This document shows positions 10,401 through 64,000 of a stretch of 64,000 nucleotides of DNA, one piece after another. Below the pieces are notes generated by a model, which worked only from the letters and a program-made list of their open reading frames with translations, ran no database searches and was not told where the DNA came from. The position numbers were made by a program, and so were the translations under genes. The stretch lies in IMG/VR virus record IMGVR_UViG_3300031857_000130, positions 3,562 to 67,561 of that record, one strand, 5' to 3'. How positions within the stretch are numbered: position 1 is the first letter of the stretch; the number at the start of each line of letters is the position of its first letter. Source of the stretch: a virus.

Positions 10401-11627
10401 TTCGACACGCGCATCATGACTTCGACCAAAGAACGGTTGAAGCAGGCTGAAGCGGATTGGGCTGTGAAAAAAGACCCTTGGAATGCTCTCAACTACGTTG
10501 TCTGGAATGCGCTCAACTTCATCGCTGAACAGGGAACGAACATCACGGGCGTCCGATTCGCCCGATTTGCAGGCAACAAGTTCAACCAGTCTGTGAGCTT
10601 TATTCCGCTGGCTGGACTCCTTCGACTTTATGAAGCTGACAACGCCAAGCTGGAAAACGCACAGCAGGCTTTCCGTGACTCCATTTGGCGCAATCAGATT
10701 GTGGGCGTTGTGGTGACAGCCATTGGTGTTCAACTTATCAGGGCTATCTCAGACGAGCCGGATGACAAGAAGCGCGGTTGGTTCATCAACGGCGGCTGGA
10801 ATAACCTTACTCCTGCACAGAAGAAGCAGAAGCTCTCTGAAGGCCAGCGCGAATACACCCTTGGATTCGGCGACAAGGTGTTCAACTACCAGAACTGGCT
10901 TCCAAGCGCATTGCTGGCTGCTATCGGCAACGTCTCTGACATGATTCGCTATTCGCCCGATGAATGGAAATCAAAGGGATTTGCCAACCAAGTCATCACC
11001 GCTGGCGTTTCTGGCGTGCAATCCTCGCTGGAAATCCCCGCCCTTGCTCAGCTTGGGCAGTTGTTCGCCAACGACCTCGCCACCAAAGACCCGGCTGAAA
11101 AGGCCATCGGACGCTTGGGACAGGTTTTGGCAGGATGGGCTGGCGGATTCATGCCTCGCTTCCTCAAGGACATTGATTACATGACGGCACCTGACATGCG
11201 CCGTTACACCACGTTCTACGAGAAAGTCGCATCGCACATCCCGGTTTACCGACGCTACGTTGGCAACGACTACTACGATATTCTTGGCAACAAGATTCAG
11301 AAGAACGCATACCCCGGCAGCCGTGATTTTGGCAAGCTCAAGGACGAGCCTGAATACCAGATGCTTGGCGCTCTGAACGCCCGTGGAATCTGGCTGACAC
11401 CCGCCAATGCCGAATACCGCATGGTGGGCAAAGGACGCTACCGCCGCCGTTTGACGCAGGAAGAAGCCGACGCTTACAGCCTTGAGACGGGCAAGCTCTA
11501 CAAGCAGATGATCCTGCGCTACGGCCCTAGAGCCTTGCAAATGCCCGCTGAACGCGCTAAGGACTACATCTCAGACAAGGCAGACGCCATGCGTGATCTT
11601 GCCCTCCAAAGAGCAATGAGACGATGA
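1488..11627 (+). CDS. Giant polyvalent (LPD-type) internal virion protein
   Basis: 3379 aa. Gly/Ala-rich N-terminus; HExxH motifs (THENMH, LHEVQHWIQEQEGF); LPD23-like TGWFPGKYDGKMRWEVPD; ART-like block DAEYMAAVESGD...FHGT...IKSADPVTRDDAGNVIPLSQRF; DSGAF TIM-barrel-like insert. Confidence 0.85.
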   Translation: MPQWYEITRSEDYQTLAPEEKAQAKARFFEKQILPSLQSDDELNNNEAIQYAYEKFMQLPDDTGQGYVTSMLGAAGRGFGEMVPGAIEGVGALTGSEGLREAGQSLRGTLEEVAPVNPIYAESVPVKLAGVGGQALSMLATAGAGGAAGKALGGVGAVGKGAQGAALGSAFLQGAAGGAREAEQYGMTGPEAYLKTLAGGMTEAGTELLPFGMASETALAKRMFAGAPRATTFAGAVGSEFGEESLGQIASNITTKALAPAGVETPGITEGALEAGLYGAFGGGVMGGINALIPTAPEKQTAEQKQWQAEINATPVDVSPPITPEESQKNATEGGIPVVTPDGAVSWMPAVSQAIAQQGPQPQGMPSDIEQRLKALTENPEIEVAARTLNETKDVPFTDAAAETAANIVAQNAEISMQPPVQPEQEAEAPAVVEMPAPTQVGEAPLSEGAERNRAIIADAAAKMRGQLPPEVSAGLESVIPAQPTTPPEDALQIQIPDESLLREKRPEMELQGMGQQNAQPEEVAAEGEEVITPQGTPTPATEGMFTPGGVGSERDATKPEQMTPEELTSIAKQAKEWASTPISEIKRKYQAEFGASDAYMAAYPYAAEIYQERQVALSKITDKKAQKQHASNIQSALEDRKPVSAEAVDTYGIRLPEGYIKQGELYIFQPGATGEPVQAAPSAAQAVKATAPGPVSQGELILEETPKQSASRIKNNMTRFASGMSAIGDLRKGTYARAGHKNYGVGFDVGLLSKNAINELAQIILNLRTQVFIDSGAFSNFKKAIKAPVTGKKVEPLNFDQILAKYDEIIAAINDANLVEETDYPRPMLVMPDVIGNQAESLSLIEKYKNWIAVESSNSTSIPIIPIPLGELSLSVAYNRILEILGSNTLGIKIDPRRFVVGIPSNAEAISRNDLAKFLSQSKPPRIHFLGAAADKNINPLIDVVAENSPTTQVTADASKIRSAILKGVSDGKTRNQAIFDALYQEDDPLVILDAIKKQIPQTTTVATNETAPPSAKGEAVASAELQPVEGSIPTVPKVSAEETVKSTEKSLEAKTPALVNRRVEQILNAGGRTMVDDLDKFLKSLSDQEFNDFVRSNFFEDPSVAIKPTDSRQAKNAKRKAATDALAQGFIPSPKAQKEANAFEQAERELEQEQQKQNAQSISNLFGPKRTNPVRNQVKSADVEQAIGELQNSGEVPSAVFTWRGTSADMRRERAKYQAQFPGAVAAAEAENVEGVFENGMSFIFTDRVVVTDLDRARAKEDGVTPAVAAAKRVLTHENMHKGFWLLPAKQQAQIMRFLREMFPAEELDELAKVYKQYADWRTNPAHEVALLDERLQKYIEETKTIPTDGVWKQFWDYIKEIWRKWTGKPKGEPTLSSMKDVVRLLRGALKNAHKARPDVTVGGDMVLFSYAGEQAIENLPEERRQFMRDSLDTAKAMAAAGKNSEEIRAVTGWFPGKYDGKMRWEVPDEGARLRNTTADWNPLENWLDHPELFKAYPKSRNIPVRLDSSLKSGGVFAGNGIRIHPDASDGVLNILLHEVQHWIQEQEGFATGSSPAAELANLPRDQEVAEVARNLRVWWTRSVPPSRRVEIKDQLRERYGSGELTTLGMEIPDESAIEMLEAWESATQFMQPQEKAAADVLIKAIYDSRERAFGETGEQPTSQLRYLNNAAEIEARDVQARQKLTPEQRRATAPYSSENIAKEDAIVMFGRGTQASISYASESAQNSAAGQQAARSTSYTPRQLEVFFGVRKAYEQMPKQNGPSVPLSELFNKTSELVDNLTQAEFDKIVQDMYADNAALQNDQFEPNSIVILPTGAMQSLSNPALLTMDDAIQRIEGFTADNEDVDSWPDDVQQRFEESAYNSAIQDNDVLAAWELASPDVRDPKLEPLVEIARKGRQHDVEWDKVANGLRAAGKYSIESVDAELAKRLPQDIIDAAQEDTSALDEWVASDEVLADAKKPFIAEVEQRIADAIKRVEDTGRYTWNGSEFEPVEDEDVSVRYSLAASSEVAQKDAEYMAAVESGDMEKAQRMVDAAAKAAGTIWDVGSGQMFHGTRSSFTRMRVPAFFSPNPEVIYDQQQENKTHDYGDQIKSFFLFGKVKQGVEMPEYTWGVRSVEDDRIAVAEGEGYDIIELVPYGDTSGGENSFFVAINPSSIKSADPVTRDDAGNVIPLSQRFQTTSPDIRYSYAQTPAQRSAVSQFKADIGEAAKGTAEFADYEGRPIKDYEILPHAKMAAGLYQDAAARLLTSLENDGLTLQDIYLKLKENEDFRLELGLHKIGGNIAELILTAQILQRSKNAINKARTPSQKAQAEKISDTIADYFDGLSTEAGQLLRSVQYIYDDPRTKFSFEQLQTEKKMKKNGTEAVNNKMEGSLPQVKANLSNEIPKVDEQAATAAAKETEAAVEEDQDAIDLAEGEATLTDKQKSAWERFKDAIRTKGLIAKALKAIRERRDGNKARMSISGEARNAIFQMTEEELIALDKKQDEIMAEAEKAFFSEGDNTAKAKRKKMVNTAKKRSEQGKEVEAGVKDPTLAKVARAINVARKNIKGPSGKAIQWKQLFSQKGSTVEQVRKNILAEVMDNEAFRDMSDDQKKMVADYFAESWNSEREKIINDMIDKNRDMLANQDKKKAAKALNDSRNRILEAVNLGVFDNDELVAILGDKFGIKMKFTEAEKAKLRDLAEKLQDDTLNKAKRNKLGREFLMELEAASQVPMAELMANFWVSSVLSGPNTIISIGLSFLNATGINIVGIHVARAVTAFAKGDVAGAIKAITTMFSDYARHLLSFPSAMNRAWQYLWSGDVSFLESGANDPFKKVNSLKEVARYQVVADLIAKDPNAVKAVFGRFMQFMSRLLTALDGFNVMVTKAGTLHAAMLQSNITPEQIRDITLKSDLKIYKDRIVKSEFGGNYPTSLRDKAYLNSLAEAEMYADLSKLGLKVENQDYLAAESAMTLDPTGVGGHFYNLVRSFDTRIMTSTKERLKQAEADWAVKKDPWNALNYVVWNALNFIAEQGTNITGVRFARFAGNKFNQSVSFIPLAGLLRLYEADNAKLENAQQAFRDSIWRNQIVGVVVTAIGVQLIRAISDEPDDKKRGWFINGGWNNLTPAQKKQKLSEGQREYTLGFGDKVFNYQNWLPSALLAAIGNVSDMIRYSPDEWKSKGFANQVITAGVSGVQSSLEIPALAQLGQLFANDLATKDPAEKAIGRLGQVLAGWAGGFMPRFLKDIDYMTAPDMRRYTTFYEKVASHIPVYRRYVGNDYYDILGNKIQKNAYPGSRDFGKLKDEPEYQMLGALNARGIWLTPANAEYRMVGKGRYRRRLTQEEADAYSLETGKLYKQMILRYGPRALQMPAERAKDYISDKADAMRDLALQRAMRR

Positions 11628-32115: not shown

Positions 32116-32191
32116 AACCGGCCATGTTCCAAGGTTGGCGAGTTGGACTCCAAATCCGATTGGTAAGGTTCGATTCCTTAGCCGGTTGCCA
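32116..32191 (+). tRNA. tRNA-Trp (CCA)
   Basis: Acceptor aaccggc/gccggtt; anticodon arm ttgga-ctCCAaa-tccga; T arm taagg-ttcgatt-cctta; encoded CCA; weak D arm. Confidence 0.85.
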
Positions 32192-39915: not shown

Positions 39916-41721
39916 ATGACCAAAGCCCCACAGAAACCCGTTGTCGCCAAACTGACAAAGGGGCCGCTGAACACCTACGGGATGCGGGAGAAGTTCAGGG
40001 CCAAAAACCAGTTGGAGATTGAGCTTATCTTGATGCAAGTCAGGTCAGGCTCGCTCCGACATCGGGATGGCAGCGTGAACGCCAAGGGCTTTCCTGCGTG
40101 GCGGCATTTCTGCAACGCGGTTGACATCCTGTGGAACTTCCAAGGATCGCAAACCAAGTTCCTGTGGCATCCTTGGGCGCTAACCATGATTCGGGACGCA
40201 TTCAAGCACAAGCGTCTGGCGATCACATCGGGTGGCTCAGGCGGCAAGACTGACGTTTTCGCCGTCTATGCCCTCGTCTGGTGGCTGGCAAAGCCGTTCA
40301 AGAATGTTGTTCTTGTGAACACTACCACGAAGGCAGCAGCTATGGGCCGTATCTGGGGTCGTATCGTGCGTTATTTCAACGGCATGGTAGCGCCACCTCC
40401 AGGCAAGCTGGTTGGCTCATCCTACTCCATCAAGGCGGTTGATCCTAACACGCAGGTTGTCATGGAGGAATACGGAATCCGACTGTTTGCAGGTGAACCC
40501 GCCAAGGCAGCAGAATCCGCGACAGCCATTCGAGGCTTGAAACACGGTGCCGGTGGTAAGCTGATCGTGATCCTTGATGAGTGCGCCGAACTCTCATGGA
40601 GCATCGTTAACACATTCGAGGAAAACATCACGCAGAACCCGAATGTCCAGCTTATCGCCCTAGCCAACGCCAATTCGCCTTTTGACACGTTTGGCCGTCT
40701 TTGCGAGCCTTGGGATGGTTGGGATAGATACGACCCGTCTTGGGACGAATGGGAAGGTAAAGGAGCGCATGTGAGGCGAATCAACATCGAGACTTCGCCC
40801 AACATTACCGAGGGAAAGGTTATTTACCCGTTCCTAATGACTCAGGAGATGCTTGCCGAGAAGCGGGAAAAGCTGGGGCCGAACACACGCTCATACTGGC
40901 GAGGCGTCCTTGGTTCGTTCATGCTGGATGCTGACGACGAGACAATCTACTCACCCGGCGAGCTTCTGCGCATCCCGAATGACTGCGTGTGGCAGGGGAT
41001 TCCAACGAAGGTTGCTGGCTTCGATATTTCCCACACAGCAGGTGGAGACAAATCCGTGCTCACCGTTGGCAGCATTGGCGTCTGCACCGATGGTAAAAAG
41101 CGTCTCAAATTTGAGAAACACTACGAACTCAATGAAGACATGGGGCGCAAGGACGTGGACAGAACCACGCAGATTATTGAAAAGTTGCGCGAGATTTGCA
41201 CGAAGGAAGGAATTGCCATCGAGAACATGGCTATTGATGCCAGTGCGGGCGGCGGCAAAACCTTTGCTGACGCCATCTGGTCAAAATGGAGCAACCGCTT
41301 TCTCCGCGTGGACTTTGGCGGCAAAGCATCCGACCGACCCGTATCTTCTGCCGACAGGGAGAAATCCAGCGTCCGATATGGCAATAAAGTGGCAGAACTT
41401 TGGGGAGTGGGCAAAGAACTGATTCGCTGCGACCAGCTTCGCAACATCACGAAGGAAATGGCGGACGACATGACTTCACGCCGCTACAAGGAGAACAAGG
41501 CGCAGGACGGCGGCTCACGCATCAAGGTGGAATCCAAGGTCGAGATGAAGCAGCGCATTGGACGCAGCCCCGACCACTTTGACAGTGCGGCAGTTCTGAT
41601 CGAGCTTTGCCGTGAACGTCATGGCCTGTCTGGTATCGACAAACCGGGGAATTACAGCAGCAAGGGCAAATCACCGCTCAAAAAGCGGTTTGATTCGCTG
41701 GCGTCGTTGTATGCGGCGTAG
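39916..41721 (+). CDS. terL: Terminase large subunit
   Basis: Walker A SGGSGGKT, Walker B IVILDE, ANANS, nuclease residues in GFDIS...GGDKS, AIDAS, SPDHFDS. Confidence 0.9.
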   Translation: MTKAPQKPVVAKLTKGPLNTYGMREKFRAKNQLEIELILMQVRSGSLRHRDGSVNAKGFPAWRHFCNAVDILWNFQGSQTKFLWHPWALTMIRDAFKHKRLAITSGGSGGKTDVFAVYALVWWLAKPFKNVVLVNTTTKAAAMGRIWGRIVRYFNGMVAPPPGKLVGSSYSIKAVDPNTQVVMEEYGIRLFAGEPAKAAESATAIRGLKHGAGGKLIVILDECAELSWSIVNTFEENITQNPNVQLIALANANSPFDTFGRLCEPWDGWDRYDPSWDEWEGKGAHVRRINIETSPNITEGKVIYPFLMTQEMLAEKREKLGPNTRSYWRGVLGSFMLDADDETIYSPGELLRIPNDCVWQGIPTKVAGFDISHTAGGDKSVLTVGSIGVCTDGKKRLKFEKHYELNEDMGRKDVDRTTQIIEKLREICTKEGIAIENMAIDASAGGGKTFADAIWSKWSNRFLRVDFGGKASDRPVSSADREKSSVRYGNKVAELWGVGKELIRCDQLRNITKEMADDMTSRRYKENKAQDGGSRIKVESKVEMKQRIGRSPDHFDSAAVLIELCRERHGLSGIDKPGNYSSKGKSPLKKRFDSLASLYAA

Positions 41722-41769
41722 AACTTGCGCTGCACCGAACGCTTCGCGTCGGTGAGCTATTGGTTGGGC
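41718..41769 (+). mobile_element. attC-like site 0 (short)
   Basis: gtagAAC-ttgc-gctGcacc...ggtgagc-tattg-GTTgggc; overlaps the terL stop; spacers are 1 nt short of canonical. Confidence 0.7.
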
Positions 41770-41773
41770 AGAC

Positions 41774-42046
41774 CTAGCGGCGTCCGAGTCGGTTCGATAA
41801 TTCGCGGCATAGACGTGCGGCCTTTTGGTTCGGCGTTTCCGGCTTTTTGAAGACCTGCACCAACACCGCGACAATCGCGACGATGAGCAGGATACCGAGA
41901 ACCAGACCAAGACTGATCCAGATCGGCGACAATACCCACCACCACGACCATGCAATGACATTGCAGAGTTTTAGGGTGATGAAGACGATGGTGAGGAGAC
42001 CGGCGAAGCCGGTTCCTCCTGATTTGCTGTTATTTTGGTTACTCAT
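41774..42046 (-). CDS. Cassette 1 ORF: small two-TM membrane protein
   Basis: GGTGFAGLLTIVFITLKLCNVIAWSWWWVLSPIWI. Confidence 0.8.
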   Translation of the reverse strand: MSNQNNSKSGGTGFAGLLTIVFITLKLCNVIAWSWWWVLSPIWISLGLVLGILLIVAIVAVLVQVFKKPETPNQKAARLCRELSNRLGRR

Positions 42047-42068
42047 GGTCGTAGATAATTCAAAAGAT

Positions 42069-42157
42069 GCCCAACAAGGCGTGGGATCTAACCGCCGGAA
42101 GCGTCTTTCTTGAAGTCGGGCTTCCCACTCGGCGGTAGATCCACTAGATCGTTAGCG
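42069..42157 (+). mobile_element. attC site 1
   Basis: gcccAAC-aaggc-gtgGgatc...gatccac-tagatc-GTTagcg; canonical 5/6-nt spacers. Confidence 0.88.
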
Positions 42158-42507
42158 GAAGAATCCAGAGCCGCCTTGAAATCCTCGCTGGGGCAATACC
42201 AGTCATCTTTCACGATGTGGCCGATGCGCTTGATTTCCGACCACGATCCTTCCACTCGGATGGTGCGTCCTTTCAGTTGCGACCACTTTTCCACACCAGC
42301 GATTTCCAAGATGCGGAAGATGTGATGTCCAGCCACGCTCAAGACTTGGTGATGGCTGAACGATTTTGGCAGATACAGCGCGTAGCCTCCAAAGCCTTGC
42401 CCCATTCCTCCGAAGTCGAGATGCAGCCAGCAATCCAAGATGCCGCGCTCTGCCATGGTGATTTCTGCCGATTCGATCACGGCGTTTTTGATTTCGGTGT
42501 CTTTCAT
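42088..42507 (-). CDS. Cassette 2 ORF: conserved phage hypothetical protein
   Basis: NAVIES...GQGFGGY.L...I.RILEIAGVEKW.QLKG; stop lies inside attC1. Confidence 0.8.
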   Translation of the reverse strand: MKDTEIKNAVIESAEITMAERGILDCWLHLDFGGMGQGFGGYALYLPKSFSHHQVLSVAGHHIFRILEIAGVEKWSQLKGRTIRVEGSWSEIKRIGHIVKDDWYCPSEDFKAALDSSANDLVDLPPSGKPDFKKDASGG

Positions 42508-42545
42508 ATTTCGGTGTTTTCTTGTGGTTTCCTGCCGCTCCCAAC

Positions 42546-42631
42546 CGCTAACAAGACGGTCGAGGCAACGGCGATAAAGTCTCTAGTCGAGGTCGGCGTC
42601 CTTCGCGCCGTGCCTCACCTCTGCGTTCTCC
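42546..42631 (+). mobile_element. attC site 2
   Basis: cgctAAC-aagac-ggtCgagg...cctcacc-tctgc-GTTctcc. Confidence 0.88.
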
Positions 42632-42936
42632 TCATCAGATTTGGGCGTCGGCATGATTGCGACGATCCGCGCACAGACAAGCATGTCCTCCAGCTTGTTT
42701 TCCCACAGTTCGCACCCGAGAGTGTCACCGGCTGCATTCGTGAGGATGATTTCTCCGTCGTCGTAGCCGAGTTCTTCAGCGATATTGCCGATGGCGGATT
42801 CGATCACGTCGAGTCCGGTGCAGTTGCCTCCCACCGTGGTTGTTTTGGTGGCCGTGTATTCCCATTGCTGGAAGGTGAGTTCGACGGTTTGCGTGGCCAT
42901 GCGGCCTGATGTCGTAAGATTTGGATCGTAGTTCAT
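42583..42936 (-). CDS. Cassette 3 ORF: acidic hypothetical protein
   Basis: 117 aa; stop lies inside attC2. Confidence 0.75.
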   Translation of the reverse strand: MNYDPNLTTSGRMATQTVELTFQQWEYTATKTTTVGGNCTGLDVIESAIGNIAEELGYDDGEIILTNAAGDTLGCELWENKLEDMLVCARIVAIMPTPKSDEENAEVRHGAKDADLD

Positions 42937-42959
42937 AGTCGTTAGGTGATTCGGAAGAA

Positions 42960-43082
42960 GGAGAACAAGGCACCTGCTGGCAACCTGCCGTCAGTAGTTT
43001 CGTCGGCGCGGGGCGTCGTTAGGAGTGGCCATTTTGTTTCGGAGTTGGAGTGTCGGCAGGTGCCAGAGGGCGGACGCTCCCT
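42960..43082 (+). mobile_element. attC site 3 with degenerate R' (GCT)
   Basis: ggagAAC-aaggca-cctGctggca...tgccagagg-gcggac-GCTccct. Confidence 0.75.
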
Positions 43083-44020
43083 CCAACCTTCTCCGCGCAT
43101 TCCGCATACCCGATGATGTCAATCAGCGTGTCCTGCTTTTTGCTGGTCTTTGCGCGGCTGACTTTGAGCAGGATCATCATCATGGCCACATCCCAAGAGG
43201 TGAACTCGACACCCTTCCACGCGCTCCATAAGGCGGCAATGCGGGCAAACGATTCTGATGCGTCACCGTAGTCTTTGGCCCTGTCGCCAGCAACGATGGA
43301 CTTGGCGGTGTCGGAGATGGAGGTTGGTATGGTTTCTTTTGGAGACTCATCAGCGTAGCGCCATCCGATGATGTAGGGTTTTGTTGTATTTTTCCACACC
43401 CACGTTTTTGCCTTGGAAGGACGGTGGCAAGCGTGGTGGCAGACACGGTGATCTTCTCCGATCACCCATACCTCGCGCTCCCCATCGCACGGCATTGGAT
43501 CGCCCGGACGGTGCCATGTCCATTCGTGGCCTTCGTAAGTGAAGGTCAGTGGGCGGGTGGTGCGAAAGAAATAATCGTTTGCTCTGTCTTGACTGAAAGT
43601 GGAGTATCTTTCTGGGGTTGCTGGCTGGTCGTAAAACCCCAAACAATCCCCCCAATACGAACTTAGGTTGGTGTGGCAGCATTTATCACATACGTTAATG
43701 GTCTCCCCCAAATACAGAGGTCTTGTTCCAGATGGCAGCATGTCAGCCGTCCATCCGTCTTCGCGGTGCCACTTCATGCCCGGTGGCGGAGTTGGAAGTT
43801 TGAACTCATTCTTTGGTGTGGACTCAGATTTCTTGCCAACAGCATCCAGAATATGCTTGGCAATCGCCAGCCTATGAGGGGCTTCATTGTCCCAATAAGG
43901 GTAATCAGATGGGTCTGATTCGAGAGAGCCAATTCCTTTTGGAAGCGCAAGGAAAGAGTCGTCTGCAATTTGCTGGAGATTGTCGGGGTGGTTCATGTGA
44001 AGGAAAGCATCGCCCATCAT
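43019..44020 (-). CDS. Hypothetical protein with C-terminal DUF6378-like domain
   Basis: IVAGDRAKDYG...F.RIA.LWS...VAMMMILLKVSR...D..IDI.GYA. Confidence 0.8.
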   Translation of the reverse strand: MMGDAFLHMNHPDNLQQIADDSFLALPKGIGSLESDPSDYPYWDNEAPHRLAIAKHILDAVGKKSESTPKNEFKLPTPPPGMKWHREDGWTADMLPSGTRPLYLGETINVCDKCCHTNLSSYWGDCLGFYDQPATPERYSTFSQDRANDYFFRTTRPLTFTYEGHEWTWHRPGDPMPCDGEREVWVIGEDHRVCHHACHRPSKAKTWVWKNTTKPYIIGWRYADESPKETIPTSISDTAKSIVAGDRAKDYGDASESFARIAALWSAWKGVEFTSWDVAMMMILLKVSRAKTSKKQDTLIDIIGYAECAEKVGGSVRPLAPADTPTPKQNGHS

Positions 44021-44049
44021 CGGGCTGGATTCAAGTTAAAAGCGTAAGG

Positions 44050-44265
44050 TTATGCTTCATCCCCCAACGCCAAGGAATACGCCGGGTTGAGAATAACAAG
44101 AGCTTCGCGCAAGGCTTCGTTCGCCTTTTCGTCCTCGCCGTATTTCGCAATTCTGCGAATCTCCTCGTAGGCAGCGATCACTTTGCCGGACAAAGCGGAG
44201 GCATTCGAGGCAAGCCGGAACTCGTCTTGTTCTTCAGGAAGGTAGAAGGTCAGGGTGGCTGTCAT
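44050..44265 (-). CDS. Hypothetical protein
   Basis: MTATLTFYLPEEQDEF; coupled ORF. Confidence 0.7.
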   Translation of the reverse strand: MTATLTFYLPEEQDEFRLASNASALSGKVIAAYEEIRRIAKYGEDEKANEALREALVILNPAYSLALGDEA

Positions 44266-44459
44266 GATTTGCGGATTTGTTGAAGCAGGTTAAAGCAGGC
44301 AGACTCGTAGGAGGTGCCAGACCCATAAACAACATCACCTCCACAATAGGAGCGAACACGAAGAATCCATAGGCCATTAATGCTTGGACTAGTGGTGAGA
44401 AGGCTGACTTCCGGCTGATCCTGAAGCCATTGAAGGAGGGATGAGTGGGCGGTGGGCAT
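44262..44459 (-). CDS. Hypothetical protein
   Basis: Coupled ORF. Confidence 0.55.
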   Translation of the reverse strand: MPTAHSSLLQWLQDQPEVSLLTTSPSINGLWILRVRSYCGGDVVYGSGTSYESACFNLLQQIRKS

Positions 44460-47671: not shown

Positions 47672-47938
47672 ATGACACTAGAGGAAACGATTCACGATAA
47701 GTACATGAGCTGGGGCGCGATTGAGGCAAATGCAGAACTTGCGCCGTTCATCATGGAGTGGGAGAAATCCAACGGAGTGGAACTGACAAAGCAGGAGATT
47801 ATGCGGGCTATCTATCACGCTGGGGAGCGTTTCGCTGACTCCATGCAAGATGACGCAAGCGAAGAAGAAGCGGCACGATTTGAGGCCATGCGCCCTTCCG
47901 TGCGCAGGAAGAAAGAGATTCTAGCAATGCTTGGTTAG
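47672..47938 (+). CDS. Early hypothetical protein
   Basis: A/C-rich leader, ATG. Confidence 0.7.
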   Translation: MTLEETIHDKYMSWGAIEANAELAPFIMEWEKSNGVELTKQEIMRAIYHAGERFADSMQDDASEEEAARFEAMRPSVRRKKEILAMLG

Positions 47939-48118
47939 CCTTCACACGGCGCGCCCTTAATCGGGGCGCGCAAGTGAGCGCTAAAAGCTCAAAAAGACAA
48001 AGGCGCAATGGGGCCGTTCGCCATCCCTCCATTCATGCGAAGGATAGAAGCATGCGAAACAAGAGTGCTCTGCATTCTGCCCGGAATTAGCCGGGCAGAA
48101 ACCAAAGCACAAAAAAAT

Positions 48119-48265
48119 ATGAAACTAACCAAAAACGAGTTCGTCGCAATCTGCGCAGAGTTTACCGTTGATCCGGCTGTGGCTCTGGAAGCTGAAGCAG
48201 TTATTCGCGCTTTAAAAACAGGTTGTGCGGATGCAGTCAGACTGGCGATTGCGTGCGAAATGTAA
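48119..48265 (+). CDS. Early hypothetical protein
   Basis: MKLTKNEFVAICAEFTVDP. Confidence 0.65.
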   Translation: MKLTKNEFVAICAEFTVDPAVALEAEAVIRALKTGCADAVRLAIACEM

Positions 48266-48303
48266 GCAAAACAGGGGCCGCGCATCTTCACGCGGAAACA
48301 AAC

Positions 48304-48573
48304 ATGAAAAAACCGATACAAATCAAAGCGGAAAGCGCCAGAAAGCTCTCGCGAGTTTTGATGGCTAAACTCGGCCCGCCAGAAGGCGGATCACCGGGCT
48401 GTGACCAGCGCGGAACCGAGTACCAGTTCACTTGGCGCTATCGTCACGACGACGGTAGCACATGGGCGAAAATGGGATATGGGCCAACTCGTAAAATGGT
48501 CACCCTTTCGCGATTTGAGCCTAAAAATGGAACTCCCGTGTTCCGGATGTGGATTCGCCTGTGTAAAGCATGA
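48304..48573 (+). CDS. Early hypothetical protein
   Basis: A-rich leader; stop abuts a repeat element. Confidence 0.65.
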   Translation: MKKPIQIKAESARKLSRVLMAKLGPPEGGSPGCDQRGTEYQFTWRYRHDDGSTWAKMGYGPTRKMVTLSRFEPKNGTPVFRMWIRLCKA

Positions 48574-48651
48574 CGCTCAACACCTGCCCTTGCCACAAGC
48601 CAGGGCAGGCATTGAACGCCACACGGCGGGAAGGAAACAACGAAAACAGAC
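48571..48651 (+). repeat. Intergenic structured repeat (second copy 49523-49601)
   Basis: tgacgctcaa-[variable hairpin]-cattgaacgccaca(c/a)ggcgggaaggaaacaa(a)cgaaaacagac. Confidence 0.85.
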
Positions 48652-48655
48652 ACCG

Positions 48656-48949
48656 ATGAAAAAGGAACAAACGAAAGTTATTTTCCGCAAGTTTACAGGT
48701 GACGGCTCAATTATTGCGCTATTCCCCGAACTGCCCGCGGATGTCCACGCGGACCATTGCTTGTCGTATCAGCATATCGGCCAGCATGGAGCAGCGAGTA
48801 TTGACCTTGCACACGTTACAGTGCCAGCAAAGCCAGCAGAGTACGCCCGCCTTAAGGCGGAACTCGAAGCAATCGGCCATAACCTGGAAACCGTGAAGCG
48901 GGCAACGGCAGCAATGCACGCGGCGCGCTGCGCAAAAATAAGGCGCTAG
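48656..48949 (+). CDS. Conserved phage early protein
   Basis: VIFRKF..G.IIALFP...SYQHIGQHG...PA.P.EY..L..ELE.IG. Confidence 0.75.
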   Translation: MKKEQTKVIFRKFTGDGSIIALFPELPADVHADHCLSYQHIGQHGAASIDLAHVTVPAKPAEYARLKAELEAIGHNLETVKRATAAMHAARCAKIRR

Positions 48950-49044
48950 ACACAAGGGCGCGGGAACCCTTAAATCCCGCAAATTTTCGGCCATCAAGCC
49001 CCGCCCGCATGCGGAAAACTGCCGGAAACAGACAAAACGACGAC

Positions 49045-49521
49045 ATGAAAAAAGCAAACATTGGCTCCATTTCGCATGGAACACTCAGAACGGCAGACTT
49101 GCTAAACGCATTCTGCAACGAGCTGGAATGGCAATTGCGCAGAAACGGGAATTATTTCGCCCACCCTGAGAACAGAGAGGAAGGGCGCAAAATTCACGAA
49201 CTTTGCGGAGAGTGCCAGGACCAGTACGAGGAGGATGGCGAAACGCTAAAAGACGAAGACACAGCAAGCGAGCTTGTGGAGAGTTTGACAGACTCCCTAC
49301 AACAATTCGCGCCCGCTTACTGCTACTTTGGCGCACATGAAGGCGATGGTTCAGACTTTGGATTCTGGCCTAGCATAGAGAGTATTGAAGAATTGCCTTG
49401 TTATGAGGGAACCGAAGAAGCACTCAAAGCAGGAGAAACGAACGACTTTCGCGTGGTGAATGACCACGGGAACGTGACTGTTTATTCTGCTAGTGGGAAT
49501 GAGATTATTGCACTCGTATAA
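49045..49521 (+). CDS. Conserved phage early protein
   Basis: GSISHGTLR..DL...YFGAHEGDGSDFGFW. Confidence 0.75.
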   Translation: MKKANIGSISHGTLRTADLLNAFCNELEWQLRRNGNYFAHPENREEGRKIHELCGECQDQYEEDGETLKDEDTASELVESLTDSLQQFAPAYCYFGAHEGDGSDFGFWPSIESIEELPCYEGTEEALKAGETNDFRVVNDHGNVTVYSASGNEIIALV

Positions 49522-49605
49522 ATGACGCTCAAAGGGCGCATAGCAAGCCTATGCGCCCCATTGAACGCCACAAGGCGGGAAGGAAACAAACGAAAACAGA
49601 CTATT

Positions 49606-49737
49606 ATGCAAATTGGACTCTATGCGGGATCATTCCCCACAATCGAAGAAGCGGAAAATTGCGCGAACCACATGATTCACGGCGGAGCGATTCAAGAGCA
49701 AGATGGCAAGTTTCACGTTTGGTACGTGAACGCCTAA
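49606..49737 (+). CDS. Small early protein
   Basis: 43 aa, after a repeat element. Confidence 0.55.
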   Translation: MQIGLYAGSFPTIEEAENCANHMIHGGAIQEQDGKFHVWYVNA

Positions 49738-49821
49738 AAAACCACTAAAGGACACCGGCCCTCCATAAACCGGCAATTTTCGAGCGGCAGACGCTCATAA
49801 TAACAAACGAAAGGACAAACG

Positions 49822-50598
49822 ATGAAAGAGCACGAAACATACAAGGGTTACAAAATCGAAATTAAACAGGATCAATACGCAGAAAACCCGTTTGAGGCAT
49901 GGGATTTTGAACCGCCACTAATCGCCTTTTATGGCGGGAGGCATTCCGAGGCATCCTATTATCAGGACGCGCCGGAATCATGGTGGGATATTCTGCGAAT
50001 GCTTCCACCTGCATTCTTCAATCGAAAGAACCGCATGGCATTCTTGCGGGAGTTTATTCTCCCGCTTGGCTTGTCCTTGCGTGACTTCGCGGAGGAAAGG
50101 CAACGCATTGGAGAAGTTGACGCAATCGCAACGTTGCTAGGCGAGTATCTAGGCGAAAAACCACAAGGATGGCGTGCCGCTAGTGAATGGCTGGAAATGG
50201 CCGAAAGCCTCTTAAAATGGGGCGGGATTGAATGCTTAAACACTCAGTCTAATGGTTATTCACAAGGCGATTCCACCTTACTGCTTGTTATTGCCTCGCC
50301 TAAATGGCTGGAACAAACAGGCATCAAAGCGGAGCATGTGGCGGAGTCGTTACAAGCAAGCGCGGATTTGTATGGAGCTTGGGTATGGGGCGACGTCTAC
50401 GGCATTTCCGCAATCTACGCTCCAAACGAGGAAGACGAGGACGCACAAGGCGAGAAAATCAGCGAAGGTTCTTGCTGGGGTTTCTATGGGCGGGATCATG
50501 AAAAATCCGGCCTTATGGAGCACGCAAGGAGCGCGATTGACTGGCACCTTGAGAACAAGGCACAAACGGCACTCAATGAGCCTGCGTGCCTGATATAG
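49822..50598 (+). CDS. Conserved phage early protein
   Basis: GYSQGD...Y.AW.WGDVYG...SCWGFYG. Confidence 0.75.
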   Translation: MKEHETYKGYKIEIKQDQYAENPFEAWDFEPPLIAFYGGRHSEASYYQDAPESWWDILRMLPPAFFNRKNRMAFLREFILPLGLSLRDFAEERQRIGEVDAIATLLGEYLGEKPQGWRAASEWLEMAESLLKWGGIECLNTQSNGYSQGDSTLLLVIASPKWLEQTGIKAEHVAESLQASADLYGAWVWGDVYGISAIYAPNEEDEDAQGEKISEGSCWGFYGRDHEKSGLMEHARSAIDWHLENKAQTALNEPACLI

Positions 50599-50683
50599 AA
50601 CACGCACGGAGCGCCTAGCCTAAACCGCTAGGCGCTCAAGCGTGAGCTACAAAGCGCACGAAACAAAACAACAAAACAAAGCA

Positions 50684-50821
50684 ATGCCCTATCACCTCCA
50701 ACAACATTACAGGGAAGCCGCAAGGCGACGCCAAGCCGCTCACGATCAAGCCAGCTTCATTCGCTGGCTCCTGATTTACGGCGCTTTAGTCCTGGCCGCA
50801 CTCGTAGCGGCGGCAATGTGA
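50684..50821 (+). CDS. Small TM protein
   Basis: 45 aa, hydrophobic C-terminus. Confidence 0.5.
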   Translation: MPYHLQQHYREAARRRQAAHDQASFIRWLLIYGALVLAALVAAAM

Positions 50822-50847
50822 ACAACAACAAACACAGAAAGAAGAAC

Positions 50848-51219
50848 ATGAACACAGACAACGAAGCAAAAATCAAAGCCTTGGCGGCATATCTCGAATG
50901 TTCGCCGGAAGAACTCAGCGAAGAAAGGTGTGACCACTACGGCATGCCGATTTTCTCGCTAGGTTCTCAGGAGTACTCCGTTGGGACGGATGAGGAAGCG
51001 GACGCCGCTTGGGATGCTGAACTCGACAACTATATCGAGGAATGCATCACGCCGGAAATCGACAGGATCGAGCTTGGCAACCTTTCCAGCTACCTCAAAT
51101 TCGACGAGGAAGCATGGAAGCGTGACGCTCGCATGGACGGGCGCGGGCACGCGCTTAGCCGTTACGACGGCGACGAAATCGAGCTAGACGGCGGTTTCTA
51201 CGCTTACCGGCTCAACTAG
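50848..51219 (+). CDS. Acidic early protein (antirestriction-like candidate)
   Basis: Asp/Glu-rich; FDEEAW.RD..MDGRGH.L..YDG.E. Confidence 0.65.
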   Translation: MNTDNEAKIKALAAYLECSPEELSEERCDHYGMPIFSLGSQEYSVGTDEEADAAWDAELDNYIEECITPEIDRIELGNLSSYLKFDEEAWKRDARMDGRGHALSRYDGDEIELDGGFYAYRLN

Positions 51220-51336
51220 GCATTGCCTCCTTGTCTCCCCTCCCGTCATGGGAGGGGAGCAAAGGGCGCAAAACCCTCCTTGCAAGGCTGCCCATCTTGC
51301 ACGGCAAAACCGGGCAAAACATAACCACAAAAACAA

Positions 51337-51666
51337 ATGCAATTAAACCACAATCCCGCAGAGTTCTGCGCAGTAAACAACATAGTTGGCCTCTCCCTTG
51401 ATCGCCTCCCAAGCGGCAAGGTGATGGCCTGCGAAGTCCGAAGAGACGAAGCCGGAGAGCTTCGCGTCCCCATTGCTCAAATGAGTCTGGAGGAGCTTTA
51501 TCGGCTCGCCTCTCGGCTCCATTTGGAAATCTTGCCATCGCGTTTCGCGTCACGGCAGGAGATGGATTCTCACCGGGCGCACGTGCGCCGACTCTCTGAA
51601 CGCGCCGAACAAGCGCGGGAGCTTCGCGGGGAACGCGAAAGCGAGGGATGGAAACAAGCTGAATAA
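51337..51666 (+). CDS. Early hypothetical protein
   Basis: A/C-rich leader. Confidence 0.65.
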   Translation: MQLNHNPAEFCAVNNIVGLSLDRLPSGKVMACEVRRDEAGELRVPIAQMSLEELYRLASRLHLEILPSRFASRQEMDSHRAHVRRLSERAEQARELRGERESEGWKQAE

Positions 51667-51753
51667 CCCTCCTGTCTGCTCTGTCGGCTAACGCTGGCAG
51701 AGTAGCGGGGAGCGTTAAAGCTCCGAACAAACAACAAAACGAAAGGAAACGAC

Positions 51754-51948
51754 ATGAACGAAAAATGCAAACGGCACAAATGGCAAAATATCGGAGGATG
51801 CCGGGAAAACCCTGGCATCATGGGCATCGGTGGCGCTGCCATACGTCACACACAGCAATGTACCGAGTGCCAGCGCACGCGTTCTCGCGTGTTCGGCGAC
51901 GTGAATGTGTGCGGCAATCGCAACCACGGATGGAGGAGCCACGAATGA
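51754..51948 (+). CDS. Small Cys/His protein
   Basis: C.RH.W...C..C. Confidence 0.6.
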   Translation: MNEKCKRHKWQNIGGCRENPGIMGIGGAAIRHTQQCTECQRTRSRVFGDVNVCGNRNHGWRSHE

Positions 51949-52063
51949 ACCCCCTGGAACCCCAAGAGCCTTGCGCGCTCGTGCAATTCGCCGTTACTTT
52001 GGCCTTCGCGGCCTTTTTCGCGGCGATATTGTTCGGGTATTGCCACTAACCAAACAGACAACC

Positions 52064-52243
52064 ATGAGCACACTAGAAACAGGTACAGAGACTCGCGGCA
52101 TTGATACCGCCGCGATTTGGCAACGTGAGTACGAGCAAGCCAAGCAAGACTGGCCCAAAGGGGGGCCGGATTGCTGGCAATGGCACGCCGATGAAGCGGT
52201 TCAAGAGGCCATAAGTGGATACGCCAGCGTTGCCAACTACTAG
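52064..52243 (+). CDS. Early hypothetical protein
   Basis: A/C-rich leader. Confidence 0.6.
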   Translation: MSTLETGTETRGIDTAAIWQREYEQAKQDWPKGGPDCWQWHADEAVQEAISGYASVANY

Positions 52244-52333
52244 AACGCTCCCGTTCAGCCTCTCTGGTTAACGCCGGGGAGGTTGCGGGGAGTTTTCACG
52301 ACTCCGATAAACAACAAACCAAAACATAGAAAC

Positions 52334-54658: not shown

Positions 54659-54750
54659 ACTTCCAGCCTAGTATTGAGCAATGGCCCGCCGAGGTTTGGC
54701 TGCAAAACCGATTAAACTGACAATTCTAGGTTGATGATCTTTGACAACTT

Positions 54751-54939
54751 GAAAACAGAATCCAGCGGCGGCGTGGAAGGACACGCTGATGACTCTAAGC
54801 GGGAAGCACCAACGTCCCATGCTACGCATGACCAGTTGGGTTTAGCGATAGGAGTTGAACGGCGAGCGGCAACGCGACGACCCGATCTGGAACTCGCACT
54901 AGCAGGTATCAAGCCCTGCCCGCTGGATTCTGTTTTCCA
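54751..54939 (+). ncRNA. tRNA-like structured RNA with enlarged central domain
   Basis: 18-bp closing stem; D-like arm gcgt-ggaaggac-acgc; T-like arm gcagg-tatcaagc-cctgc. Confidence 0.65.
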
Positions 54940-54944
54940 CTAAT

Positions 54945-55086
54945 TTGCCTGCCGTGCCTGTGCTGGCCGATAGCCTTCTATGTAACGCTGCAATATGCGT
55001 GAACGATGCAACAACGCGAAGCGCGAGAGAGCACAAAACCGAAGACAGGGAGCGATCCCAAGTAGGACTCTCGCGGCGGCAGGCAA
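54945..55086 (+). ncRNA. Putative structured RNA
   Basis: Closing stem ttgcctgccg/cggcaggcaa; no convincing ORF. Confidence 0.45.
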
Positions 55087-55144
55087 CTACTTTCTGTAAG
55101 GTTCGTGTTGCTTTTCAGCGCACAAAGTGATAAGATTGACTTCT

Positions 55145-63324: not shown

Positions 63325-63448
63325 CCAGAACGCGGAGTTCAGTCAGTCCGAAACGAAGCCCACAACCCAAGAAGACCAATGAGCACCCTAGAAACCACTG
63401 ACACAGCAGTCCAAGCCACGAGGACTTGGATGCACCGTTTTGTTCGCC
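63325..63448 (-). mobile_element. attC-like site A
   Basis: Minus strand ggcgAAC-aaaacggtgcatccaagtcc...ggactgactgaactccgc-GTTctgg; L arms imperfect. Confidence 0.7.
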
Positions 63449-63735
63449 TTTTGGGCTATGTTTGTCCAGTCTGCGAGGATGTGAGGCACCGTCTCAAGGG
63501 ACACCGCTGCTCAAAGCTGGATGGTGAGCACGGACTTGCTGCCGCTACCATGAGAGCATGGGAGCAAGAGTGGGGAGACGGAGCCAGCGGAGATGCTGGC
63601 GCGATGCTCAGGCGAGAACTGCGGAGCGTAATCCGCCGCTACGGTCAGGAGTCGGACGTGACCGCATATCAGGCCATCGGCGCGCTCCGCATGGTGGAAC
63701 ATGATATTGTGGACATGCTCGACTGCGCAGCGTGA
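63379..63735 (+). CDS. Cassette ORF, hypothetical (CxxC)
   Basis: ATG lies in the loop of attC-A; stop lies just before attC-B. Confidence 0.7.
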   Translation: MSTLETTDTAVQATRTWMHRFVRLLGYVCPVCEDVRHRLKGHRCSKLDGEHGLAAATMRAWEQEWGDGASGDAGAMLRRELRSVIRRYGQESDVTAYQAIGALRMVEHDIVDMLDCAA

Positions 63736-63736
63736 A

Positions 63737-63875
63737 GGCGAACGCTCAATCTCTGCCAACCCTGGGGCACGACCAGGACAACACGACAAAGGCCCAATAA
63801 CATGACCGAAGCAAGCACACTAACAATGACCCAAGACCAGCCCCAGAGGTTGGTAGCAGAGCCGGGTTGTCCGCC
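63737..63875 (-). mobile_element. attC-like site B
   Basis: Minus strand ggcgGAC-aacccgg-ctctgctaccaacctctgggg...ccccagggttggcagag-attgagc-GTTcgcc. Confidence 0.75.
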
Positions 63876-64000
63876 CGAATGGCTGGAAGAGATAGTCGAA
63901 ACTATCGGCATTACCGATGGCGTCGATCTCGTTGAATGGCACCTAGACCAGACGGGCGACTACATCGTCAAAATCGAATACGGCGAGGAAGAAATGAGCT
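63802..64000 (+). CDS. Cassette ORF, partial (runs off the window)
   Basis: MTEASTLTMTQDQPQRLVAEPGCPPEWLEE...; start lies in the attC-B loop. Confidence 0.65.
   Translation, partial: MTEASTLTMTQDQPQRLVAEPGCPPEWLEEIVETIGITDGVDLVEWHLDQTGDYIVKIEYGEEEMS

Follow-up and report, generated by a model that had tools for sequence, protein, structure and literature searches.

A probable integron-type cassette array of reversed polarity in a phage genome without an integrase

Introduction

This study concerns a 64,000-nt stretch of viral DNA, referred to as the window, which comprises positions 3562–67561 of the 67,561-bp IMG/VR virus record IMGVR_UViG_3300031857_000130, and in particular an array of three integron-type cassettes with a degenerate fourth site at 41718–43082 (array 1; positions are those of the window unless the genome is named). 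Array 1 is probably a working integron-type cassette array in a phage that lacks an integrase, i.e., a cluster of attC sites lacking integron-integrases (CALIN), in which the genes have a reversed, phage-specific layout and the integron integrase (IntI) would act in trans. Integrons are treated as bacterial devices in which the cassettes face the promoter, a rule that is broken by the phages described here; genes reversed with respect to the same kind of sites are found in a complete phage genome, in its strain-level relatives and in other phage contigs.

Anatomy and support of the attC sites

According to the accessible text of Nivina et al. (2016; PMC5027507), attC sites have outer boxes of the form RYYYAAC and GTTRRRY, central spacers of 5–6 nt and lengths of 57–141 nt; the first extrahelical base lies near position 16, the last one is T, and a 6-bp stem separates them, and a GAA loop is found in many attC bottom strands. 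All four attC-like palindromes that a first-pass annotation of the window had reported are present at the positions given in Table 1, and their textbook anatomy could be confirmed for attC1, attC2 and attC3 and not for attC4. The first three have the R″ and R′ boxes with AAC and GTT. Their outer four bases do not always follow the purine/pyrimidine pattern (GTTAGCG and GTTCTCC), as is expected in arrays, where such boxes are hybrids with the next cassette.

Table 1. Positions of the sites, cassettes and genes in and around the two arrays
Feature	Position	Strand	Description
terL, terminase large subunit	39916–41721	+	phrog_2, E 9e-14
attC1, resident, putative docking site	41718–41769	+ (top)	R″ GTAGAAC, R′ GTTGGGC; 52 nt
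attC2	42069–42157	+ (top)	R″ GCCCAAC, R′ GTTAGCG; 89 nt
attC3	42546–42631	+ (top)	R″ CGCTAAC, R′ GTTCTCC; 86 nt
attC4, degenerate terminal site	42960–43082	+	R″ GGAGAAC, long bulged stem; 123 nt
Cassette 1	41764–42151	−	ORF1 and attC2
Cassette 2	42152–42625	−	ORF2 and attC3
Cassette 3	42626–43076	−	ORF3 and attC4
End match 1	41763–41769 / 42069–42075		GTTGGGC / GCCCAAC, exact over 7 nt
End match 2	42151–42157 / 42546–42552		GTTAGCG / CGCTAAC, exact over 7 nt
End match 3	42625–42631 / 42960–42966		GTTCTCC / GGAGAAC, exact over 7 nt
ORF1	41774–42046	−	small membrane protein, 90 aa; phrog_1374, E 2e-25
ORF2	42088–42507 (start 42507)	−	core of ~118 aa; phrog_30930
ORF3	42583–42936	−	DUF5406; PF17400, E 3e-20; phrog_3409
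DUF6378 gene, resident	43019–44020	−	PF19905, E 4e-26
Site A	63325–63448	+ (bottom)	right box GTTCGCC matches GGCGAAC ending its unit
Unit A ORF	63379–63735	+	118 aa, no family found
Site B	63737–63872	+	GGCGAAC..GTTGTCC; extra bases on 3′ arm of + strand
Unit B ORF	63802–64000, past window end	+	127 aa
Site C	genome 206–337	+	R1 22.8 bits
Site D	genome 745–844	+	R1 12.2 bits
Site E	genome 1420–1484	+	R1 21.3 bits
(ORF, open reading frame; aa, amino acids; R1, covariance model described in the text)

When the bottom strands are folded with AAC and GTT constrained to pair, attC1 takes the form R′-UCS6-CT-CACCGA-CGC GAA GCG-[T]-TCGGTG-[C]-AG-UCS5-R″ (UCS, unpaired central spacer; extrahelical bases in brackets), with GAA as its loop. 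Its minus-strand ends are GCCCAAC followed by a 6-nt spacer and, at the other end, a 5-nt spacer followed by GTTCTAC, and its crossover point is G|TT at 41763|41764. attC2 has an extrahelical C and an extrahelical T with a 6-bp stem between them, and attC3 is canonical, with an extrahelical G, 6 bp, an extrahelical T and unpaired spacers of 6 and 6 nt. In these sites, the first extrahelical base lies 15–16 nt from the end and the last one is T. The site of cassette X (attCX), a cassette carried by relatives of the phage, has three unpaired bases with a spacing of 3 + 3. The predicted bottom-strand hairpins with extrahelical bases thus hold for attC1 to attC3, and attC4 does not fit.

The first 7 nt of each of the three cassettes are the exact reverse complement of the cassette's own inverse core, as had been noted from the sequence. 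The same complementarity is present in cassette X (GTTCGGC/GCCGAAC), and a more distant relative (L006) has three further perfect 7-nt end matches. Six or seven perfect matches of this kind have a chance probability of ~6e-8, even if purine/pyrimidine constraints are granted.

Two tools of our own were used to examine the sites. A bulge-tolerant scanner, in which the two arms next to AAC and GTT are aligned with each other, found four sites with scores of at least 22 in the 67.5-kb genome, as compared with 0.2 per dinucleotide shuffle (30 shuffles, of which six reached such a score, once each). All four fall in array 1 or array 2 (see below); attC2 scored 24, attC3 22 and site B of array 2 27. 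As a positive control, the best three hits in Tetrasphaera phage TJE1 fall in the region of its published three-site CALIN (Qi et al., 2023; PMC9892861) and have the chained end matches. The second tool, the covariance model R1, was trained on 38 non-identical attC bottom strands of 52–78 nt from 12 bacterial chromosomes; they were drawn from 12 of 15 chromosomal stretches that extend from intI into the array, and the strand used was that with the extra bases opposite AAC. With filters off, R1 gave minus-strand hits within 41500–43300 for attC3 (28.2 bits, E 9e-6), attC2 (22.9 bits) and attC1 (16.7 bits), with ends identical to those of the first-pass annotation. The model check proposed there therefore supports three of the four sites (16.7–28.2 bits) and does not support attC4. 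On the plus strand, these three sites reached only 1.4–9.7 bits (attC2, 1.4). In controls, R1 matched TJE1 and the complete integron of a Thermodesulfobacteriota metagenome-assembled genome (MAG; L068) on the strand opposite their genes. When every AAC..GTT pair was ranked by constrained folding energy, the sites were not separated from the background.

Cassette turnover among related phages

Relatives of the phage were represented by seven IMG/VR contigs, which were collected by searching for terL and for the pattern of the resident site, and by sequencing runs, in which uncovered parts and shares below 0.2 were excluded as evidence. The flanks of the compared contigs are 96–100% identical, and those of L002 and L005 are 99–100% identical to the window. 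Within these flanks, the array is empty in L001 (G003), in which attC1 is directly joined to the backbone; it consists of cassette X alone in L003 and L004, of cassette 2 and then X, as far as the contig extends, in L002, L005, G005 and G006, and of cassettes 1, 2 and 3 in the window. Cassette 1 is missing exactly from GTT to GTT in L002, L005, G005, G006 and a 19-kb contig of run X12, an independent lake-water run, the contig of which has the [2,X] form. Cassette X, which encodes a Phage_YunG-like protein (PF24591), takes the place of cassette 3 in L005, G005 and run X12.

All of these breakpoints lie at GTT triplets (41763–41765, 42151–42153 and 42625–42627), and on the right side every relative rejoins the backbone at 43073–43078, which coincides with the right edge of attC4. 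The expectation, set beforehand, that indels among relatives would map to the G/TT triplets is thus borne out. Because the sequence shared by adjacent sites is limited to the 3-nt triplet, these differences cannot credibly be ascribed to homologous exchange between sites. attC1 is conserved in all relatives, including L001 with the empty site. In the more distant L006 (TerL 84% identical), the array is different, and the attC1 homologue has three pairs of the 6-bp stem changed on both sides and the unpaired C retained.

Polarity of array 1

The coding strand of array 1 is the bottom (minus) strand of its attC sites, and the plus strand is the top strand. This assignment is based on three independent lines of evidence. 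First, in the plus strand the unpaired bases belong to the AAC arm, which is the mark of the top strand of an attC site (Nivina et al., 2016; PMC5027507). Second, R1 matches the minus strand only. Third, attC3 is located 5′ of ORF2 in all contexts, and the 3′ neighbor of ORF2 is attC2 or attC1, and X retains its own site on its 5′ side, with attC1 or attC3 as its 3′ neighbor. Because the site travels with the gene on the 5′ side, a cassette in this phage consists of an attC site, then a gene, then the crossover. None of the three cassettes of array 1 shows the canonical layout, in which the gene is on the top strand and is followed by its own attC; phage TJE1 and the complete bacterial integron were found to be canonical by the same method. 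The earlier statement that the ORFs lie on the strand opposite to that of normal cassettes is accordingly upheld by the side of the extrahelical bases, by the strand matched by the model and by the joint movement of site and gene.

An attC-gene-crossover layout predicts that C-terminal tails change with the downstream site, and they do. In the window, ORF2 crosses the crossover and stops at 42088 within attC2, and ORF3 crosses the crossover and stops within attC3. The ORF2 protein ends in DSSANQ* (the asterisk denotes the stop codon) when attC1 follows (L002 and L005) and is 20 aa longer in the window. The protein of cassette X ends in SEPNQ* when attC1 follows; after attC3 it has the tail NAEVRHGAKDADLD, which is identical to that of ORF3. 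Similarly, the DUF6378 protein ends in KVGGNQ* at the empty site (L001) and in 17–22 other residues where cassettes are present, so that its last codons come from whichever site abuts the gene. The tails that end in NQ* after attC1 indicate that the resident site supplies AAC CAA TAG in frame. The ORF2 family comprises 1443 homologues, mostly of 112–120 aa, and the closest homologues of ORF2 have unrelated C-terminal tails.

The accessible text of Nivina et al. (2016; PMC5027507) states that no mobile or chromosomal integron has ever been observed to hold oppositely facing cassettes. When the longest ATG ORF was taken between neighboring sites of equal polarity, it lay on the top strand in 53 and on the bottom strand in six of 59 intervals from 15 bacterial arrays, with no tie (under strict rules, top 32 and bottom 1). 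In 57 intervals from IntI-linked viral arrays, it lay on the top strand in 19 and on the bottom strand in 37, with one tie (strict: top 4, bottom 12). The two sets differ with Fisher p values of 2.7e-10 (crude) and 2.3e-7 (strict), for a rule that is crude and noisy and a viral set in which some contigs are possibly bacterial fragments. Some toxin–antitoxin cassettes of integrons are antisense, and a preprint on promoters in Vibrionaceae gives no frequency of antisense cassette ORFs.

No terminator-like or promoter-like consensus was found on the sites of array 1, and no sigma-70-like promoter was found in 41500–44300. attC1 holds the position that attI would have; there is no general model for attI. 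Array 1 is likely to be expressed by read-through from the leftward operon. As the first-pass annotation had suggested, all three ORFs belong to phage protein families (Table 1). In RcPutin and CUB19, the homologue of ORF1 stands in tightly packed operons without such sites, according to feature tables only and with no site scan.

A mirror-image array behind dnaB

A second array of five sites (array 2) starts at 63325 behind dnaB and runs ~1.5 kb past the end of the window, where it includes a Dam methylase unit (genome 1–1484; L073). Its polarity is the mirror of that of array 1: here the plus strand serves as the bottom strand and also carries the genes, which gives the same layout. Site A contains the start codon (63379) of the ORF of unit A, and the loop of site B holds the start codon (63802) of the next ORF. 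Site E and attC1 are paralogous (AAC CAATAG CT ... C AG CGNAA GTTC). The units of this array also vary: in relative G001, an extra 723-bp unit with an N6_N4 DNA methylase is inserted exactly after GGCGAA|C at 63743, and a single 284-bp unit replaces two units (1180 bp, including the Dam methylase) between AA|C points.

Proposed mechanism and source of the integrase

In the model proposed here, a cassette is one attC hairpin and then one small phage gene in the direction of transcription, the coding strand is the recombinogenic bottom strand of the site, and the crossover (AA|C on that strand and G|TT on the other) coincides with the end of the gene or shortly precedes it. The conserved resident site, which is fused to the terL stop codon, may be the docking point beside which new cassettes enter. 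The array would form the last part of the transcript of the leftward phage operon, and the dnaB array is built as its mirror image. IntI would be provided in trans, either from a chromosomal integron of the host, for which IntI-rich freshwater Betaproteobacteria are tentative candidates, or from a co-resident phage or prophage that encodes it. Its substrates would be the bottom strands, folded when replication or transcription leaves the phage DNA single-stranded. One possibility is that replication runs outward together with transcription, in which case the bottom strands of both arrays would be both the lagging-strand template and the non-template strand, which would favor folding.

An integrase is absent not just from the window, for which this was first noted, but from the whole genome. 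The complete genome and four relatives gave no match to TIGR02249, PF00589, PF01797 or PF00239; no tyrosine, serine or HUH recombinase was found in the complete 67.5-kb genome, and no IntI in the seven related phage contigs. Array 1 has three to four sites in 1.4 kb of a genome that encodes no integrase and is therefore a CALIN, and because the genome has no recombinase, the integrase would have to act in trans. A divergent 450-aa tyrosine recombinase of G005 (L030) and G006 (L031, 706–2055) was considered as the cassette enzyme of this phage and rejected: it has 15.7 bits to PF00589, NCBIfam does not assign it to IntI, its gene is 35 kb away from the array, and G000–G004 lack it. Reading of its sequence reveals the R..HxxR..H..Y motifs, and the gene adjoins the counterpart of a tRNA-like region at 54735–55093 of the window. 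Because it is absent from the present genome, the phage group may contain both temperate and non-temperate forms.

Of 61 genomes from the order to which a bacterium with a homologous cassette array belongs, 28 have IntI above the TIGR02249 cut-off, a tally that includes one unpublished genome (G037) used nowhere else. A search of IMG/VR with four bacterial IntI proteins yielded 293 viral stretches encoding IntI relatives; among the best 80 of these loci, which were kept, there are no close relatives of the present phage. One of them (L079, 1–14942) is clearly a phage, with terL (E 4e-187), an array, IntI, portal, protease and major head protein genes in this order. Its IntI (464.8 bits to TIGR02249, cut-off 265) is co-directional with a bottom-strand array of the same polarity, in which four to five sites share the strand of the genes, and one of its two methylases has 64% protein identity with the Dam unit of the present phage. 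The frequency of IntI in that bacterial order and the phage-encoded IntI beside arrays of the same polarity make an integrase acting in trans more plausible.

Related cassettes in other phages and bacteria

Members of the ORF2 family also occur on the bottom strand within chained attC arrays in bacterial genome records: in a contig binned with Thiobacillus (L044), in one binned with Nitrosomonas, between RecT and RecE genes (L051), and in one binned with Gallionella, beside methylases and a prophage integrase (L049). In an IntI-bearing Thermodesulfobacteriota MAG (L039), the family is found once in canonical orientation. IntI above the cut-off is present in four of five of these genomes. Hairpins beside an ORF2 homologue in a Desulfobacteraceae record (L046) have boxes that are complementary within a site and not across cassettes; this ambiguous case was left uncounted. 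In three MAGs, the IntI genes lie at contig ends and hence offer no adjacent array for control.

Pieces similar to attC2 and attC3 (window 42061–42144 and 42550–42629) were found on other contigs of runs X9, X10 and X11, in which similar sequence follows from GTT. By way of the motif from those contexts, two unrelated phage contigs of the same polarity were reached (L071 and L072), one of which (L072) holds a site that is 80.7% identical to attC3. Six stem-loops at early-gene ends (47936–52306) were also considered as attC sites and rejected, because they are perfect hairpins without bulges or AAC/GTT boxes; they look more like regulatory or terminator elements.

Alternative explanations

One alternative, which we regard as unlikely, is that a phage enzyme of an unfamiliar family, or a recombinase of the host that is not IntI, moves the cassettes, and that the likeness to attC arises from the use of folded single strands. 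It would agree with the lack of IntI in the related phages, with the polarity unlike that of bacterial arrays and with the GCT outer triplet and the extrahelical C bases, which do not follow the consensus for IntI. In addition, the conserved, paralogous pair of resident sites is peculiar to this phage group, the only one hit by a pattern scan of IMG/VR (eight stretches). However, the spacing imposed by IntI is present (6 bp, 5–6-nt spacers and AAC/GTT crossover), R1 detects the sites although it was trained solely on bacterial IntI-linked sites, the genome offers no tyrosine, serine or HUH candidate, and other phages of the same layout encode IntI. Moreover, a site on the phage-type contig binned with Nitrosomonas (L051, 4099–4158) and a site beside a chromosomal IntI (L185, 7110–7169) are identical over the inner ~50 nt, and the difference is confined to the outer box bases, which belong to the neighboring cassettes.

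It is equally unlikely, in our judgment, that the arrays are relics and that their present differences result from homologous recombination between phages, with no ongoing site-specific events. Mosaicism in this group is strong: among 39 junction pairs identified against three relatives, only six lie in the two arrays, and the other 33 are by eye ordinary mosaic joints that are not at hairpins. In addition, the terminal GCT would make a poor IntI substrate, and circles or minority junctions were not observed in assembled contigs. Against this explanation, single-cassette differences occur between flanks that are 99–100% identical, the triplet shared by adjacent sites is too short for homologous exchange, and both arrays vary. 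The attC2- and attC3-like pieces in other contexts have a depth of 33–133, as compared with 3–5 for the phage; this 7- to 30-fold excess suggests a live pool.

That the sites are ordinary intergenic terminators or repeats resembling repetitive extragenic palindromic (REP) elements, with AAC/GTT matches by chance, is very improbable: modest folding scores and the position of attC1 between convergent genes, where a terminator is expected, would suit it, but no site has a terminator-like match, the 7-nt end matches are perfect, R1 matches a single strand, the indels lie exactly at the triplets, and the plain hairpins at 47936–52306 look different.

A working integron-type array of reversed polarity is therefore preferred here, and several observations weigh against it. 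Both R1 and the scanner are self-built and are not the published attC model (IntegronFinder), and in unconstrained DNA folding the sites differ only modestly from shuffles (z −0.7 to −3.0). attC1 is 5 nt shorter than the published minimum, and the first extrahelical base of attC1 and attC2 is C and not the usual G. attC4 reaches only 1.4 bits in R1, which is no support by the model, its outer triplet is GCT (43076–43078) and not GTT, and its stem has a large bulge and fails the spacing pattern of the hairpins. Occupied arrays end in GCTCCCT (43076–43082) and the empty site in GTTCCCT (L001, 7848–7854), so that simple G|TT excision from an occupied array would leave GCT and not the GTT of the empty site. 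In array 2, site A is not detected by R1 and has an uncertain left boundary, and site B has just 8.0 bits; the ends are perfectly complementary in only three of six units (A, D and C′), with two of the four outer bases matching in B and M and three of four in C. Unit D also carries a minus-strand ORF, and the rule that all genes are reversed is therefore strict for array 1 only. Excision circles or junction reads were not found among the assembled Logan contigs, and no integrase could be linked to the phage or to its host.

Genome setting

The record has terminal repeats and a completeness rated 100%, and because its terminal repeat is 57 bp long, the assembly is circular or permuted. Array 1 lies at the junction between the end of the rightward head-packaging block and the end of a leftward operon; the TAG stop codon of terL (41719–41721) falls within the inverse core of attC1, and the leftward genes past the DUF6378 gene include those of a helix-turn-helix protein and an HNH endonuclease. 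The DUF6378 gene contains an 81-bp in-frame segment at 43603–43685 that is missing in G001 and L004. Elsewhere, the window has an ORF of 3379 aa at 1488–11627 and a tRNA-Trp gene at 32116–32191, directly upstream of the glycosyltransferase/portal block. An Rfam search of the window gave zero matches, and blastn against isolated phages gave short gene-level matches alone (12 records, each with at most 2% coverage).

Significance and comparison with known systems

Through the demonstrable exchange of their cassettes, the arrays provide a concrete, testable mechanism for part of the mosaicism of phage accessory genes and connect phage and bacterial gene pools through one recombinase; the DNA methylase cargo likely protects against restriction. 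A wider reading, for which we consider the chances to be even, is that these arrays represent a phage branch of the integron system, with a cassette pool of reverse polarity, resident docking sites and IntI from hosts or phages, and with polarity separating the phage and bacterial pools. If so, the pool would circulate among unrelated phages and prophages and dock inside phage operons. Phage cassettes would then be silent in bacterial arrays, and bacterial cassettes, many of which are anti-phage defenses, would be silent in phages, while both pools would still have the enzyme and the grammar of the sites in common.

Phage attC clusters as such are already in the literature: 10,705 phage genomes were reported to contain 17 CALINs and three complete integrons, IntI1 recombined five of the six phage attC sites tested, and the showcased arrays, those of TJE1 and PH101, were presented as structurally typical of bacteria (Qi et al., 2023; PMC9892861). 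Those phage CALINs, as far as their accessible description goes, resemble the present arrays in having attC sites with single-gene cassettes in virulent-type phages without IntI, in carrying DNA methylases and in having sites that IntI1 recombines. They differ in that TJE1 is canonical by both the scanner and R1, whereas the genes of the present phage are on the bottom strand and are read across the crossover; furthermore, this phage has two mirror arrays, each ending in a conserved resident site, and gain and loss at G|TT are documented at the strain level (compared with Qi et al., 2023; PMC9892861). Neither reversed polarity nor strain-level cassette turnover in phages was found in the literature covered, in which subscription journals are thinly represented, although the supplementary tables of Qi et al. 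(2023; PMC9892861) may list the orientations of the other 14 CALINs.

Bacterial integrons, above all sedentary chromosomal ones of Burkholderiales-type bacteria, have the same site anatomy, crossover and end-complementarity rule. The present phage differs from them in that no intI, recognizable attI or Pc-like promoter was found, in that expression is likely by way of the phage operon, and in polarity, with 53 of 59 bacterial intervals being canonical as compared with none of the three in array 1.

In T4-type phages, small accessory genes in hyperplastic regions are shuffled as stem-loop-bounded modules, the promoter(early)–stem-loop (PeSL) cassettes, by homologous exchange between sequence-similar promoter/stem-loop repeats. 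The sites described here, in contrast, differ from each other in sequence and have only structure and the 3-nt crossover in common.

The IntI-encoding phages of IMG/VR differ from the present phage in that those of the L079 type have their own IntI. Like the present phage, L079 has an array beside terL, genes on the bottom strand and a Dam-type methylase as cargo, and the cargo family phrog_24232 is shared with the array on the contig binned with Thiobacillus (L044).

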